This document shows, piece by piece, positions 15,308 to 62,944 of a stretch of 64,000 nt of DNA. The position numbers and the translations under genes were made by a program. The notes beneath the pieces are model-generated. The model searched no databases and had not been told where the DNA came from. It was given only the letters and a program-made list of their open reading frames with translations. Position 1 is the stretch's first letter. Each line of letters begins with the position of its first letter. The DNA is from Podarcis pityusensis (taxonomy: Eukaryota): the NCBI GenBank assembly GCA_964106645.2, contig OZ067048.1; one strand, 5' to 3'.

Positions 15308-15443
15308 AAGGCATAGGCAAACTCGGCCCTCCAGATATTTTGGGACTACAACTCCCACCATCCCTGACCACTGGTCCTGTTAGCTTGGGATGATGGGAGT
15401 TGTAGTCCCAAAACATCTGGAGAGTTGAGTTTGCCTATGCCTG
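15308..15443. mobile_element. Palindromic hAT MITE
   Basis: Near fold-back over its whole length; perfect 8-bp TSD ACTTAGAC (15300-15307, 15444-15451). A related decayed copy lies near 47181-47298. Confidence 0.88.
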
Positions 15444-23500: not shown

Positions 23501-23836
23501 ATCACAGCGGTCTATTTTCCTTTTCATTATGTTCTTCTTGTATTTTTCAAAATATTGGCTTGTGCTTTAGAGGGTTCCCATTGCTATCTGTGCCAGCTGC
23601 AACTTAAAGTATAAGTTGCATTTTCCCTGAAAATTTTGACTATGGGAAAATCCTGTCGGGATCTGAATAGTCTGAAATTATTTGGTGTCCTGTCATAATT
23701 GATTTGAGTAAATTTAATTTGCATACTTAATGGTGTAAAAGCTTCGTTAAGTGTTCCCTTCAGAAGGTCTCTCTCCTCTCATACATACAATACATACAAT
23801 CAACTTGATTTATTATAGTCAACTTGGTTGACTATA

Positions 23837-24051
23837 CAGTGGTACCTCTGGTTACAAACTTAATTCGTTCCGGAGGTCAGTTCTTAACCTGAAACCATTC
23901 TTAACCTGAGGTACCACTTTAGCTAATGGGGCCTCCCGCTGCCGACACGTGATATCTGTTCTCATCCTAGGGCAAAGTTCTTAACCCAAGGTACTGCTTC
24001 TGAGTTAGCGGAGTTTGTAACCCAAGGTGTTTGTAACCCGAGATACCACTG
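23837..24051. mobile_element. Tc1/mariner-type (Tigger/pogo-like) MITE
   Basis: TA TSD; TIRs CAGTGGTACCTC / GAGATACCACTG. Confidence 0.88.
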
Positions 24052-24168
24052 TATTTCATCTCGGGAGATAAGAGAAATATATGAGCTTGGTGAGGAGAAG
24101 TTTTATATCTAATATGGTTGCATTGTGCTAAATTTCTAAAAAATGTGTCTTGTTTTAAAATTTACTAG

Positions 24169-25399: not shown

Positions 25400-25826
25400 C
25401 CGTATTTTTCCATGTATAACATGTCCCCATGTATAAGACGACCCCTATTTTGGGGGACTCCAATGTAAGAAAATGGGGGGGATTGCCCAGGGTTGTTGAG
25501 CGTTTTTTTTTGGGGGGGGGTGCCAAAAATCACTAACCCGACTGACAAACGCTACAAATTGCAAGTGTCGCCAAAGCCACAACGCGTCTGCTCGCCCGCC
25601 GACAGAAGCCGGCATTCGCACGCCCAATTGCCGCAGCGACAGCCAATCCACAGCAGCCCTTGCCGCAGCTACCAATCACCCACCAAATCGCTGCTGACAA
25701 GCTCCTGCTCGTGCCTGCAACCAATAGCCCGTCTCCTCTCTGCACTATGCATGTATAAGGCGACCCCAGATTTTTAACATTATTTTAGAGTAAAAAAACC
25801 CTCGTCTTATACACAAAAAAGTACGG
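25400..25826. mobile_element. Tc1/mariner-type non-autonomous element (CCGTATTTTT termini)
   Basis: TA TSD; TIRs CCGTATTTTTCCATGTATAA / TTATACACAAAAAAGTACGG; CpG-rich interior. Confidence 0.82.
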
Positions 25827-27637: not shown

Positions 27638-27973
27638 GTGAAAAATGCTTTAGATTTATGTATTTAGCATATGTTCATATAGTTCTTACCGTTATCATCA
27701 TAAATTCATGGAATGCTGGGCCAGTGATGGGTCGGGCATGGAATGTGGGGAAAGAGCAAAGGGGGAAATGTCAGTTGGTGACACTTGAAGGAGAAGTTGA
27801 AAAGGCACTGAAGAGAGAGGAAGCAAGTAAACACAATATATCAGAGAGGAAGAAAAGTGAACCTGGGCAACAGAGCAGATAGACTGAAAGAACTGTGAGA
27901 AATGAATATTTAACTAACTAAGTTAACTGAGGTTGAGTTATTTGATCACAGTGTTCGTTGGCTGAGTGAATTA

Positions 27974-28143
27974 CCGTATTTTTTGCTCTATAAGACTCAC
28001 TTTTTCCCTCCTAAAAAGTAAGGGGAAATGTGTGTGCGTCTTATGGAGCGAATGCAGGCTGCGCAACTATCCCAGGAGCCAGAACAGCAAGAGGGATCGC
28101 TGCTTTCGCTGGTCTGGTGCGTCTTATAGAGTGAAAAATACGG
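27974..28143. mobile_element. Tc1/mariner-type MITE (CCGTATTTTT family)
   Basis: TA TSD; TIRs CCGTATTTTTTGCTCTATAAGAC / GTCTTATAGAGTGAAAAATACGG; related copy at 62304-62472. Confidence 0.88.
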
Positions 28144-28171
28144 TATATTTTGTTTTTAAGATAATGAAGTA

Positions 28172-28682
28172 GCGTATTTACCAAGTCTAATGCACCATTG
28201 AATCTAATGAGCACCTCAATTTCCAGAACATTGAAACCAAAAAAAGTATTTGCTGGTGAATGTACTGTATTGGCCTGAATTTAAGCCTCACTTTCCCCTC
28301 AAATTCCAACCATGAAAAGTTAAAGTGCAGCTTATATTCGCAACCTTACGGTATGCATCCAGGAGCGCAGGGCAAACAGCGCCCACCTTGTGCGTAGTTC
28401 CCCGTCCTCTCCCCCAAGGCCGGGAAGGGAGAGAGCAAGGAAGGGGAAAGGCTGCCGGCAATGCAGCCCCCCCCCCCGCCCAGTATGTAGCCAGGAGCAG
28501 GGAGAAAGGGAGCAGCTTATATTTGGGTATTTGTTTTTTCAATTCTAAAGGTGCGGTTTATATTCGGGTCTGGCTTATATTCAGGCCAATATGGTAAATG
28601 TGCCATCAAATCTAATGTGCACCTTAATTTTCACAGTGTAATTTGTCCAAAAAAGGTGAGTGTTAGGTTCAAGTAAATACAG
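28172..28682. mobile_element. Tc1/mariner-type MITE interrupted by a second element
   Basis: Outer TIRs GCGTATTTACCAAGTCTAA / TTAGGTTCAAGTAAATACAG with TA flanks. Confidence 0.7.
28265..28594. mobile_element. Nested Tc1/mariner-type MITE
   Basis: TA TSD; TIRs CTGTATTGGCCTGAATTTAAGCC / GGCTTATATTCAGGCCAATATGG. Confidence 0.82.
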
Positions 28683-36014: not shown

Positions 36015-36515
36015 GTACAGTAAACAAATCACTTACTACAGGGGTGAGCAGCCTCTGACCTGTGGGCCCATCTTGGTTGGCAGGGGTTCCAGTTTTGCCT
36101 GTGAGGCCATTTCCCTCAAACCAGGCCCATCTGTCCATCCGCTGAAGTCATGGCATGCTGCTAAGGCAGGATTAAACCCTGTCCTCATGCCCATCAGCTG
36201 ACATCCTGCCTTAGCAGCATGCCATGTTTCCAGCAAGTAACAGGATTGTGCAGCCAGGACAGCGGGACTGAGCAGGGATTAAAGCACTTCTCAAAAGCAG
36301 TGTTTGGATCTCCTGTGAGCAGTGGGTGGTTGCTGCTTCAGCAGGGTGGGGGTTGCTTGGCTGAGGTTATATTGGTGCTGATTTCCCTTCTGTTCAAGTT
36401 GAGCTGCTAGTGATATGTGTCTAGTGAATTGGGCTTTTTGTAGACTCTTGTTGGTAGTTTAGAGACTGTGGAAAGCTACTTTTACCTAATCAATAGCTAT
36501 CCATTTTATTTCCAG

Positions 36516-36614: not shown

Positions 36615-36970
36615 GTATGAGAATGCTATTGTTCCCATTGACTAATGTATCAGTTGTGATAAATAGAGTTGTGTCTTACGTGTTCTAATTTTTTTATTGT
36701 CCTTGACATGATTGGCGATTATCCTCTGTCCCTAGTGTTGGTTTATTCTTTAAAGACTGAGAGTTCTCATACTGTAGTGCTCAAGCAAATGTTGCAGTTT
36801 GCACACATCTCCCTTGATACATGTAAAATACTCTGGGTCTTTAGTGAGGTTCCCTATAACTAATCAACTATTCTAGTATAGCACGTATGTAGGATTGAAG
36901 TTGATTAAGTAAACATAGCATTAAATGGATTCAAATATTTTCAAGAGAGTTTAACAATACTCCTGCAGTA

Positions 36971-37211
36971 CAGTGGTACCTCGAGTTACAAACGCCTCAG
37001 GTTACAAATGCTTCAAGTTACAAACTCTGCTAACCTGAAAGAGTTACCTCGAATTGAGAACTTTGCCCCAAGATGAGAACGGAAATTGTGTGCTGGCAGT
37101 GCAGTGGCAGCAAGAGGCCCCATTAGTGGAAGCACGCCTCTAGTTAAGAACAGTTTCAGGTTAAGAAAGGACCTCCGAAACAAATTAAATTCATAACTAG
37201 AGGTAGCACTG
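36971..37211. mobile_element. Tc1/mariner-type MITE, same family as 23837-24051, opposite orientation
   Basis: TA TSD; CAGTGGTACCTC / GAGGTAGCACTG termini. Confidence 0.87.
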
Positions 37212-37516
37212 TACAATATTTTTATAGTTTTCAATTATATAAAGCAGATTTCATGTTTATTTGACATTGTTTCCAAAAACATATTTGGTCTGCTTTGGTC
37301 TTAAGTTGATGATTAATGAACTTAGATGGTGTTTCAAATATTTTAGATGCTATTCAGAAACCTATTAGTATTATGAATGAGCATGTCACTTTACAGAGCC
37401 TAATAGGAAAGAGGTCCCTGCTTCAAAAATAATGTAGGTTAGACAGAGTGAAGGGATAGTAACATAAAGCAATAGTCATAAGGTTAGAAAAAACTTACAT
37501 TTGGTATATTACTATT

Positions 37517-37886
37517 GTGGGTGGCGCTGTGGTCTAAACCACTGAGCCTCTTTGGCTTGCCAATAGAAGGTTGGCAGTTCGAATCCACACGACAGGGTGA
37601 GCTTCCTTTGCTCTCTCCCAGCTTCTGCCAACCCAGCAGTTCTAAAGCACACTAGTGCAAGTAGAAAAATAGGTACCACTGTGGCAGGAAGGTAAATGGA
37701 GTTTCCGTGTATTCTGGCTTCCATCACGGTGTTCTGTTGTGCCAGAAGCGGTTTAGTCATGCTGGCCACATGACTCGGAAGGCTGTCTGTGGACAAACAC
37801 TGACTCCCTTGGCCTGAAGCGAGATGAGAGCCGCACCCCATAGTCACCTTTGACTGGACTTAACTGTCCAGGAGTCCTTTACCTTT
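37517..37886 (+). mobile_element. Sauria SINE (Squam1)
   Basis: GGGTGGCGCTGTGG A box, GTTCGAATCC B box, CCTTTACCTTT tail; similar to the copy at 56398. Confidence 0.88.
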
Positions 37887-48430: not shown

Positions 48431-49277
48431 CAAGGGCATAGGAAGGGGGGGTGCCCCAGGTGCCATCATTGGGGGGGGGGACGACACACGAATTATCATG
48501 GAACAATTACTGCCCTACTAGGGCGGTTCATAAAAAACTTTTTTGAAAATGCCTGCACCGAAGGTCTTATCTTACTACACTAAGGATTATATAGCTATAT
48601 ATGAAATTTCATGCATATCAGTTAATATCTTGACCCTCATCCATGAAAATAGCTGTTTACTTGGCTGTTTTCCTATGTCGTGAAGGCTGAAATTTCAATT
48701 CAGTGGAGCAGGGTCAAGATATTAACTGATATGCATGATATTTCAGATATAGCTATATAATCCCTAGTTTATTAAGATAAGACCTTTGGAGCAGGCATTT
48801 TTGTTTTTTTAAAAAAGCTTTTTATGAACCACCCTACTGTCCTACCCTCCGCTGGGCTTCCCGGGTCCTGGAAAGTCAGCCTATGTGAAGAAAATGAGAC
48901 TAGGCCAAGTAGATTAGGCCTTGCCTTGCCTTCGCCCTGCCCCTTGCATGCAGCTGTTTTTTCTTGATTTTACTGCTGTGGTGTTTTTTGTTTTGATAAA
49001 CCACTTTGCAGGTTTTTTAAAATAAATTTTATTAAATAAATAAACAATAAATATAAATAAAATAACACAAGCCAAAACACAATCCATCCTGTAGATTTAA
49101 GTATCTGCCCATAGTCGCCTACTTGTTATCAGAGGCCCAGAATCCACATTCCTTTGTAAGAAAATAAGAAATAGCGTAAAACTGTTTTGTAGGCAAAAAA
49201 ATAAGAAAACTCAATGTGGGGAGGGGGTGACAAGAAATTTTCCACACCGGGTACCACCTGACCTTCCTACGCCTCTG
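48431..49277. mobile_element. hAT-like non-autonomous element hosting a fold-back MITE
   Basis: TIRs CAAGGGCATAGGAAGG / CCTTCCTACGCCTCTG; TSD unclear. Confidence 0.65.
48519..48836. mobile_element. Fold-back MITE with about 120-bp inverted arms
   Basis: Arms 48519-48637 and 48710-48836 are near-perfect reverse complements. Confidence 0.85.
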
Positions 49278-50860: not shown

Positions 50861-51771
50861 GTAAGTATTGAGAGCCTGCAGAATTTTACTGCCTATCAAC
50901 TTCCTTATAAAAATGCTTGAACTCTGTTCTGAAATTTTAAGTTTTTGTTATTTAGAAGGTGAAATATGAAGAGCAGTGGTTACAGGCTGAAATTGTTTTT
51001 TTCTTCAGAGGTGAGGAATGGAGTATGCCGACTTCTTCCACTGCAAGTTCCCTTCTTCAGTTCGCTTGCTGAAGAAATGTGTATCTAATGCACAGAACTA
51101 GGCAAATTAGAGGCTGTTGGATGAGCTGCAGGTTGCATCATTTTTCCATTGACAATGCAATGTCATTGGGTTGGGCTGTCACAGTGAGCTTGAGATGGTC
51201 CATGCAAAAATTAAAGTGTAGGCTCAAGCTACATGTGACATCGCAGAATTTGCCACTGAGCACAAGCTTTTGCTTTCACACATTACCAACATACCCTAGT
51301 GTGCTGTTGTCCCGATCTGGGTTGGGGGGGCCCCATGCCTTCAATCTGCATTATGGGCTGCAGGGGAGTCTCTGTTCGTTCTACTGGGAGCTTTCTACCT
51401 AATGCAAATTTCATGCATGGGCCTGGCCCAGAAATGGACCACAGAGCAGGCAAAGAGTCAAAAGACTCCCTCTTGGGTTTGAGTTGGTGTGGTGCTAGCA
51501 AAATTTCCCCACAATTGCCAAAAGTTAACATTGAGGCTCTAATATGTAAGAGATCTAAAACCCTGCCCCCTTAAGGCCTATTAAGGAAGAGAACAATCCT
51601 TGCTTTCTCCAAGAAAAGATGTGTCACATGCTACTAAATTGATAGTGTACTCCGCAAATTGTCTTAATGTTACTCCCATAAGGCTTGCGCACCATCTTCC
51701 TTGTTTTCTTTTCTGTTTTCATAACTCATTTTAAGATGGCGCCTAATCTTCTTTCCAATATCCTTTCTTAG

Positions 51772-52002
51772 TTCAAACTTCTCATGGAACACTTGGATCC
51801 TGATGAAGAAGAGGAAGATGGAGAAGTGTCAGCTAGCACAAATGCTCGCAACAAAGCTATTACCTCGCTGCTCGGAGGAGGCAGCCCTAAAAACAATGCA
51901 GCTGAGACAGAGGATGATGAGAGTGATGGGGAGGATAGAGGAGGAGGCACTTCAGGGGTGAGGCGGAGGAGGAGTCAACGTATTTCGCAGCGTATTACGT
52001 AA
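51772..52002 (+). CDS. NIPBL: NIPBL exon 46; isoform A splices after 51957 (GGG|gtgagg), isoform B reads through to TAA at 52000-52002
   Basis: tag|TTC acceptor; FKLLMEHLDPDEEEEDGE...GGGTSG then VRRRRSQRISQRIT*, the known isoform B C-terminus. Confidence 0.97.
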   Translation, partial: FKLLMEHLDPDEEEEDGEVSASTNARNKAITSLLGGGSPKNNAAETEDDESDGEDRGGGTSGVRRRRSQRISQRIT

Positions 52003-52425
52003 AATGATTTTATGTGCTTATAAATGTCAGTCTATAATAAAATGTACACTGAGTAATGTAATCAATATGGAAAAAAAACCATTTTGTAGATAGAAATTCT
52101 TAACCATTTATACACCTTTTTGTAGAAAGTTCTAACAAAAACAATAAAAAACATAGAAGAGATTTTATCTAGCATAAAGTTTAATTTTCCTTTGGAATGT
52201 ACTGTGTGTATCCTTTTTATTGTTGCCAAGTTTTTATGTAGCTTTATGATTCATTTGTACATATAATTTTATATATCAATAAGAGTTAAAAGACACGGGT
52301 ACAATTTAATATGTGATTTTGCAAGGATGTTAACCCCTTGGCGCTGGCGGTCGCGGTGCGTCTCATTGCCGGCAATGGAATGTGTGCCGGGAAATCCCAA
52401 CTCCCGGCGTCAAGGGATTAAAAGC

Positions 52426-52431
52426 AATAAA
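52426..52431 (+). promoter_or_regulatory. Candidate poly(A) signal for NIPBL isoform B (also ATTAAA 52417-52422, AATAAA 52036-52041 and 52143-52148)
   Basis: Hexamers downstream of the isoform B stop codon; which one is used cannot be told from sequence. Confidence 0.5.
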
Positions 52432-52439
52432 AGCAATAA

Positions 52440-52817
52440 NNNNNNNNNNNNNNNNNNNNNNNNNNNNNNNNNNNNNNNNNNNNNNNNNNNNNNNNNNNNN
52501 NNNNNNNNNNNNNNNNNNNNNNNNNNNNNNNNNNNNNNNNNNNNNNNNNNNNNNNNNNNNNNNNNNNNNNNNNNNNNNNNNNNNNNNNNNNNNNNNNNNN
52601 NNNNNNNNNNNNNNNNNNNNNNNNNNNNNNNNNNNNNNNNNNNNNNNNNNNNNNNNNNNNNNNNNNNNNNNNNNNNNNNNNNNNNNNNNNNNNNNNNNNN
52701 NNNNNNNNNNNNNNNNNNNNNNNNNNNNNNNNNNNNNNNNNNNNNNNNNNNNNNNNNNNNNNNNNNNNNNNNNNNNNNNNNNNNNNNNNNNNNNNNNNNN
52801 NNNNNNNNNNNNNNNNN
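52440..52817. other. N-gap 1 (378 nt); further gaps at 53127-53406 and 53659-53798
   Basis: Runs of N. Confidence 0.99.
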
Positions 52818-52862
52818 ACTTTACGATCGTTGTATGCCGCCAAGGATGGAACTTCCAGCTAA
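52818..52862 (+). CDS. NIPBL: NIPBL exon 47 (isoform A terminal exon), visible 3' end only
   Basis: Immediately after the N-gap: ACT TTA CGA TCG TTG TAT GCC GCC AAG GAT GGA ACT TCC AGC TAA = TLRSLYAAKDGTSS*, the known isoform A C-terminus. Confidence 0.95.
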   Translation, partial: TLRSLYAAKDGTSS

Positions 52863-56397: not shown

Positions 56398-56745
56398 GGG
56401 ACGCGGGTGGCGCTGTGGGTTAAACCACAGAGCCTAGGGCTTGCCGATCAGAAGGTTGGCGGTTCGAATCCCTGTGACGGGGTGAGCTCCCGTTGCTCAG
56501 TCCCTGCTCCTGCCAACCTAGCAGTTCGAAAGCACGTCAAAGGGCAAGTAGATAAATAGGTACCGCGCTGCGGTGGGAAGGTAAACGGCATTTCCGTGCG
56601 CTGCTCTGGTTTGCCAGAAGCTGCTTAGTCATGCTGGCCACATGACCCGGAAGCTGTACACCGGCTCCTTCGGCCAATAAAGCGAGATGAGCGCTGCAGC
56701 CCCAGAGTCGGCCATGACTGGACCGGGGTCAGGAGTCCCTTTACC
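56398..56745 (+). mobile_element. Full-length Sauria SINE (Squam1)
   Basis: GGGACGCGGGTGGCGCTGTGG head, GGTTCGAATCC B box, CCCTTTACC tail; TSD TAAATGGCCAC/TAAATGGTCAC (56387-56397, 56746-56756). Confidence 0.92.
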
Positions 56746-56960
56746 TAAATGGTCACAATAGGCCTAAAATAGAAGGTGACTATGAACTAGGTGGGCAACA
56801 TCAGTCATAGTCTTCAAAGAAACTGAACAACAAAACCTTGTTGGGTCATTCAATTGTAATGGCCTTTGGGGACATACAATAAAGCTGTGACTGTGACCGA
56901 CCTGCCAGAATCGCCTTTCTTCTGCAAAAACACCATTTGAAAGTATTAAACAGCAAAAAA

Positions 56961-62264: not shown

Positions 62265-62303
62265 CTGGAATACAGCACAAAACTCAGACATAATTAACAC
62301 ATA

Positions 62304-62472
62304 CCGTATTTTTTGCACCATAACACTCACTTTTTTCCTCCTAGAAAGTAACGGGAAATGTCTGTGCGTGTTATGGAGGGAATGCCTACGGGTGGCATGC
62401 CTACGGATTTTCCTCCTCTAAAAACTACGTGCGTGTTATGGTCGGGTGCGTGTTATAGAGTGAAAAATACGG
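62304..62472. mobile_element. Tc1/mariner-type MITE (CCGTATTTTT family)
   Basis: TA TSD; TIRs CCGTATTTTTTGC / GTGAAAAATACGG; similar to 27974-28143. Confidence 0.87.
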
Positions 62473-62944
62473 TACTTCAAATAATTAGATGAAATAACAT
62501 TTAAAAGCATGTAAAAGTAGCATAGCAATATATATGTCTGTTTTGATCTCAAAGCACTATAAAGTTTCCAAAAATATCAAGTGCATGGAAAACAAAAGTT
62601 AGTCCACAACTAGAACTGGATTTGGACCTCTCTCAAGGTAACACTAATAACTTTATCATGTATCTCAGTGGAGCTGTGTGGGGAGGGAATAAATATCCAA
62701 GAGATGGATGGGAGTGAAGCCTTCCAGCTCAGTCCGATCTGCCTCTAGGATAGAAACAGCAACGCAGCCTTCCCATGATTGGCCAAATTTGGGGCAGGCT
62801 GAAATCCACTTCCCCGGATGGCGTGGGGACCATTTTTGGTGTTGTGCTGGCTGGGACACCCCCCCCCCCCGAGTCATGGCCCATCGCTGGATAATGGCGG
62901 GGATGGGGTGGGGATGTTGTCCCACAATGCCACCTGAGCTGTAA

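Follow-up and report, generated by a model that had tools for sequence, protein, structure and literature searches.

In human NIPBL, isoform B arises from an extended exon 46, as set out in the passages on this isoform in two studies (PMC5372497, PMC4100155), and it takes in 211 nt of intron 46 (PMC4100155). Those passages describe no RNA structure, and the end of isoform B that they report lies upstream of the site of the hairpin analyzed here. Isoform A exceeds isoform B in every tissue, and their expression follows much the same pattern (expression passages of PMC5372497), which speaks against a strong switch between the two. The acceptor of human exon 47 scored as weak (0.41; splice-site passages of PMC4100155). 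RNA structures that bridge the elements of a poly(A) signal are treated in part of a review (PMC11870849); they share with our locus a stable stem beside a hexamer, whereas the NIPBL stem lies 5' of the hexamer and that hexamer is a candidate.

The passages on piggyBac in a study of coral elements give as hallmarks terminal inverted repeats (TIRs) of 12–19 bp, a CC[C/T]T end and TTAA duplications, and describe coral CMITEs as ~100 bp long with CCCCT/CCCTT ends (PMC2872659). CMITE families III and IV resemble the NIPBL element in being ~100 nt long, in carrying TTAA at either side and in having inverted ends of 13–14 nt with these termini (PMC2872659). In our alignment, the right end of family IV has 11 identities with the right arm of the element. 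Unlike the coral elements described there, the NIPBL element has a long imperfect palindrome as its interior and a mismatched outermost base, is seen in one copy and has no known cognate transposase. The relics Eulor, UCON, X_DNA and MER12x are likewise short, non-autonomous, DNA-transposon-like sequences in a conserved non-coding setting (PMC5753468). In contrast to the NIPBL element, none of them is placed under piggyBac in the repeat lists of this Repbase review, where the human piggyBac repeats comprise Looper, MER75, MER75A/B and MER85 only; deep conservation of the NIPBL element is putative.

The window (the whole stretch of Podarcis pityusensis DNA that was analyzed, 64 kb) includes the 3' portion of NIPBL, as shown by one exon that matched a solved Nipped-B-like protein (E 2e-38); the Pfam family Nipped-B_C was matched by two of the five frames tested. 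Exon structure, the read-through tail and a hexamer at the expected distance are as in human isoform B (isoform passages of PMC5372497 and PMC4100155); the human exon 46 has 189 nt according to the c. numbering (PMC4100155, in part). Directly 3' of a 92-nt element in intron 46, a run of N masks the end of the intron and most of exon 47. If the human coding length of exon 47 is assumed (365–366 nt in the exon passages of PMC4100155), the acceptor would lie 75–76 nt beyond the element, in agreement with the ~75 nt anticipated in the preliminary description, which had been made from the sequence alone. A possible second splice donor at 51998–52000 (position +42 of intron 46) overlaps the stop codon of isoform B. 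It agrees with the upstream-exon end of a human splicing event (230 nt = 189 + 41; PMC6609318), a match that suggests a third, conserved C-terminal splice form of NIPBL. A distal branch point at 52333 was rejected because three AG dinucleotides (52413, 52423 and 52432) precede the acceptor.

Table 1. Features of the NIPBL 3' end and of the element in intron 46, in window coordinates.
Feature	Position	Strand	Remarks
NIPBL exon 46	51772..51957	+	186 nt; from splice dinucleotides and reading frame
Start of intron 46, coding tail and stop of isoform B	51958..52002	+	Frame open to the stop at 52002
Proximal AATAAA	52143..52148	+	Predicted unpaired probability 0.93; downstream tract 46% U; predicted end near 52168
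Branch-point-like YNYTRAY	52328..52334	+	Directly 5' of the stem; one of three matches in 52014–52439; a lead only
Left TTAA, candidate target-site duplication	52330..52333	.	From sequence and scan
Left terminal inverted repeat	52334..52347	+	14 nt; begins CCCCT; 5' strand of the outer stem; predicted pair probability 0.95–1.0
Interior	52348..52403	+	G-U-rich middle helix; palindrome 52364–52377 as a 5-bp apical stem; 3' bulge with GGGAAATCCC
Right terminal inverted repeat	52404..52417	+	11 of 14 complementary; outermost position mismatched to the left end
Right TTAA, candidate target-site duplication	52418..52421	.	Spells ATTAAA with 52417 and 52422
Distal AATAAA	52426..52431	+	Candidate second poly(A) signal; +469 of intron 46
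NIPBL exon 47, coding part	52497..52862	+	Start derived from the human coding length; stop of isoform A seen at 52860–52862

Position +211 of the intron corresponds to 52168, which is 20 nt past the AATAAA at 52143 (+186). This hexamer is likely the signal of the documented short isoform B, whose end would thus precede the hairpin by ~160 nt. The distal hexamer at +469 does not fit the reported end at +211, while the one at +186 does. The preliminary description, which listed neither of the two upstream AATAAA hexamers (52036 and 52143), had taken the hairpin to mark the A/B decision point, a placement at odds with this position. The further AATAAA at 52036–52041 (+79) has a predicted unpaired probability of 0.86 and is followed by a tract poorer in U (29%).

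The ATTAAA at 52417 and the AATAAA at 52426 to which that description had drawn attention are both in the sequence, and these distal hexamers may form a second poly(A) site. ATTAAA owes its existence to the mismatched base at the end of the stem, which covers it partly (predicted unpaired probability 0.44). For the distal AATAAA, the predicted mean unpaired probability is 0.64 (0.67–0.99 per base in shorter context), and the distal AWUAAA hexamer is accessible by prediction. Because it ends about 65 nt ahead of the inferred acceptor, competition between 3'-end and splicing factors would be expected there whether the hairpin is present or not. Four TGTA motifs lie at 52198–52259.

The element is 60% GC and holds nine CpG (observed/expected, o/e, 1.1), against 26% GC over the 200 nt upstream of it and a CpG o/e of 0.21 for the window. 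In the sense RNA, the arms 52330–52347 and 52404–52421 pair at 17 of 18 positions, with 15 Watson-Crick pairs, two G-U pairs and one C-A mismatch; all three arm differences are transitions. The anatomy first reported for the element was therefore accurate in its GC- and CpG-rich composition amid AT-rich DNA, its 17/18 arm pairing with two G-U pairs and its 14-bp palindrome at 52364–52377, which was perfect on rechecking. The sequence GGGAAATCCC occupies 52389–52398, in the 3' bulge, and fits the kappa-B consensus GGGRNWYYCC.

Several features of the ends match those of piggyBac MITEs. The 84 nt between the TTAA motifs hold no transposase and lie within the MITE limit of <500 bp, TTAA stands at both flanks, and the 14-nt TIRs, complementary at 11 positions, fall within the range of 12–19 bp. 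The left end reads CCCCT and the right end TCCCT, with the strict CC[C/T]T absent; CMITE families III and IV and the metagenome element L001 (see below) also end in CCCCT. A scan for 14-nt arms that are flanked by TTAA, match at 11 or more positions and carry a CC end found one instance in the window versus 0.01 per shuffled window (200 shuffles); when CC was no longer required, the numbers were three and 0.135. This terminal anatomy and the shuffle rate of 0.01 support the earlier suggestion of piggyBac-like termini with a TTAA target-site duplication, and we consider a piggyBac-type origin of the element likely. Kolobok/T2-type MITEs end purine-first, and an assignment to them was rejected for the CCC ends found here.

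Copies of the element were then sought in and beyond the window. Within its 64 kb the element is present once. DNA patterns for a second copy or an orthologue returned nothing from viral contigs, nothing from genome contigs and, from metagenome contigs, L001 only; a protein scan of the metagenome contigs for the orthologous NIPBL locus confirmed none of 599 pattern matches. L001, the single locus from the metagenome scan for similar ends, is an independent 79-nt element with a perfect 17-nt TTAA plus TIR. Of 19 columns in its alignment with the right arm, 17 are identical, 13 of them preset by the search pattern, and its interior is not significantly similar to that of the NIPBL element (12% of 300 shuffles), so L001 illustrates the type of end and not the same family. 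At positions 301–379, with TTAA flanks and perfect 13-nt inverted ends, it is a very small piggyBac-type MITE; upstream of this element, the locus carries a degenerate direct repeat ~50 nt long. The string AAATCCCA is common to L001 and the bulge of the NIPBL element, an overlap that is not significant.

The inverted repeats listed for the window number 28, and about ten of these, besides the NIPBL element, look MITE-like by their ends, so such hairpins and lineage-specific insertions are common in this region. Among eight inverted-repeat elements compared, the NIPBL element had the most arm mismatches (3/14) and the highest CpG o/e (1.0). Two younger-looking elements of the eight retain a CpG o/e of 0.6–0.86, and CpG richness is thus no proof of selection. 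MITE-like elements with long inverted ends occur at 15309–15442, 36149–36226, 48519–48836 and 28268–28591; the first of these has near-identical 8-nt flanks, which we take to be hAT-like. Two pairs of related TA-flanked inverted-repeat elements (27972–28145 with 62302–62474, and 23834–24054 with 36968–37214) are presumably Tc1/mariner-like. Two SINE copies at 37519–37884 and 56405–56746, 74% alike, are in our view Sauria SINEs, which fits DNA from a lizard. A CpG-rich stretch at 25400–25800 (15 CpG in 181 nt, o/e 1.12) lies inside an element with Tc1-like ends.

The predicted RNA fold of the element has an energy of -41.3 kcal/mol (z -2.65, none of 200 shuffles as good), and a second shuffle run gave z -2.77, with 10 of 1000 shuffles as good; by both values the predicted stability exceeds that expected from composition. 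In 426 nt of context, the 13-bp outer stem is predicted to pair with a probability of 0.95–1.0. According to these predictions the element would be a static bulged RNA rod without an alternative state. A branched or switch-like fold, the former being the shape originally proposed, was rejected since the best predicted fold is a single bulged rod, and the small GGG-AAAT-CCC hairpin proposed with it reached a pair probability of only about 0.2. The long 3' bulge, which breaks the predicted stem, and the lack of an Rfam match also led us to reject a microRNA precursor. Pairing of the 5' arm with 52838–52856 (74% over 19 nt) was discarded, as 75 pairings of this kind occur within 3 kb.

Sense-strand specificity and uniqueness of the hairpin were not confirmed. 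Two G-U pairs of its stem had been described as working on the sense RNA, but the minus strand folds equally well (z -3.02). When the halves were aligned without favoring G-U, 30 Watson-Crick columns, seven G-U and three A-C were obtained (one-sided P 0.17); this 7:3 surplus is not significant and amounts to a hint of RNA-level selection. Nor is the hairpin alone in the window: of 2731 sliding windows, three have a better energy, it lies behind or beside other inverted-repeat elements, and z falls below -3.4 in five of the 15 best, several other elements folding better.

Prior records of the structure were then considered. At the gathering score, Rfam gave no match in the window, and the four sub-threshold matches were prokaryotic (E 0.85–6.4). 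Among the literature matches listed, none described a structure in NIPBL intron 46; this is weak evidence, since genome-wide screens mostly appear as browser tracks. NIPBL was absent from the supplements of PMC8052449 (five files), PMC11310781 (one file), PMC7941889 (12 of 20 files) and PMC3467077 (two of three files), and from the main text of PMC6116022. The 11 supplementary files of PMC1440920 contained neither NIPBL nor chr5 coordinates, and nothing relevant was found in PMC6440663 and PMC8208053.

The age of the element can be approached through the length of the intron. The starts of human exons 46 and 47 are 737 nt apart in one table row (PMC6609318), which, minus the 189-nt exon, gives a human intron 46 of 548 nt. 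The lizard intron would measure 539–540 nt, the human coding length of exon 47 being assumed, and about 451 nt without the 88-nt insertion. An insertion confined to lizards would thus require an ancestral intron ~97 nt shorter than the human one, although the first 211 nt seem collinear. By eye, ten of the first 11 letters of the human primer sR46b (PMC5372497) match 52089–52099, so the upstream part of the intron is homologous to human. Such comparisons lend indirect support to the ancient origin first raised as a possibility for the element, which is probably older than the split of lizards and mammals.

Transcripts were looked for with 69 words of 51700–52439, and 23 of the 24 runs listed hold all or part of this stretch; four of the runs may come from the source itself. 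By region, 38% of the words overlap sequence beyond +211, 15% the element and 10% intron 45. Five runs of a relative (organism C, from two studies), guessed to be RNA, hold 0.87–0.90 of the 69 words; if they are RNA, transcripts extend well past the proximal signal. A share of 0.90 would then fit a spliced intron 45 with a kept intron 46, and could equally result from a handful of substitutions. Among the runs listed, the shares were 0.64–0.77 for organism F, 0.23 for organisms D and E and 0.17 for chicken gut, the last two values possibly stemming from the coding part. The row for the human event across intron 46 is presumably in the format of a MISO retained-intron event. When macrophages were grown together with one cell line, the event changed by -0.38 and -0.33 PSI (PMC6609318), and processing of this intron can therefore vary.

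We conclude that the element is a real, likely transposon-derived hairpin, and that the main premise of the regulatory claim first made for it is at odds with the reported end of isoform B. Our favored reading, to which we assign a probability of roughly 0.4, is an immobilized piggyBac-type MITE that probably predates the lizard–mammal split and whose predicted static rod would at most fine-tune the processing of intron 46. A piggyBac-type MITE would have inserted at a TTAA site, lost its mobility through the mismatched outermost base, and been retained over a great age by selection. The rod would be carried in intron-retaining or long isoform B transcripts, 75–165 nt before a weak exon 47 acceptor and just 5' of the second hexamer cluster. 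There, the long duplex would attract proteins that bind double-stranded RNA or make the 3' part of the intron more compact, which would shift the frequency of intron 46 retention or the handling of long isoform B RNA. The documented short B end would likely be set by the upstream AATAAA, without the hairpin.

A younger origin is the chief competitor to this reading, though we hold it to be somewhat doubtful: the element would be a squamate- or lacertid-specific piggyBac MITE, a near-neutral passenger whose hairpin simply follows from its inverted ends. The many MITE-like elements in the window, several of which fold better, speak for it, as do the absence of a strand preference, the restriction of arm differences to transitions and the CpG kept by young elements. 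It would, however, make an intron length within 9 nt of human a coincidence, and it sits poorly with a single copy in 64 kb and, small numbers allowed for, with arms that are more diverged than those of other elements yet keep their CpG. An origin from host sequence, as a conserved hairpin whose TTAA-CCC ends are coincidental, is improbable: it would account for the lack of a second copy in the window or the three contig collections and for the departure from an exact CC[C/T]T, but the chance rate of 0.01 per window and the close likeness to the ends of L001 and the CMITEs speak against it. Least probable in our judgment is a MITE relic retained for a role at the DNA level, in which the CpG-rich palindrome and the kappa-B-like GGGAAATCCC would matter; the CpG o/e and the lack of an RNA-strand preference point that way, whereas one 10-mer motif is weak evidence and the pairing, with its 30 Watson-Crick columns, spans the whole element.

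A further rival reading concerns the function of the hairpin. That it controls the choice of splicing to exon 47 or cleavage at the distal ATTAAA/AATAAA, as first proposed, now appears quite unlikely. It could do so, for example, by drawing upstream UGUA motifs towards the hexamer, with U2AF and 3'-end factors contending for the same 65 nt. The short distance from the distal AATAAA to the inferred acceptor suits this model, and the four TGTA motifs would come ~80 nt closer. Structure can indeed bridge poly(A) elements (relevant part of review PMC11870849), the human acceptor is weak (PMC4100155, in part) and the human event across intron 46 varies between conditions (PMC6609318). Against these points stand a reported human B end that fits the proximal hexamer, a distal AATAAA that is predicted to be mostly unpaired and not occluded, a predicted fold without a second conformation, an ATTAAA that hinges on one mismatched base in the stem, and the shared tissue pattern of human A and B (expression passages of PMC5372497). 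Unlikely too, if a little less so, is the broader possibility that a piggyBac MITE from before the amniote radiation has been kept as an RNA hairpin that balances splicing, retention and 3'-end formation, and hence the NIPBL isoform ratio.

NIPBL is dosage-sensitive, and its choice between isoforms A and B is left unexplained in the isoform passages of PMC5372497 and PMC4100155. Should the element prove specific to lizards, it would be one more MITE among about ten in the window. If it is common to amniotes and acts on intron 46, it would offer a 92-nt, testable handle on the A/B choice and a rare case of an exapted piggyBac relic. In the event that it does balance the isoform ratio as an RNA hairpin, it would be an ancient piggyBac relic not among the human families listed, and a non-coding target for Cornelia de Lange syndrome that has gone unscreened.
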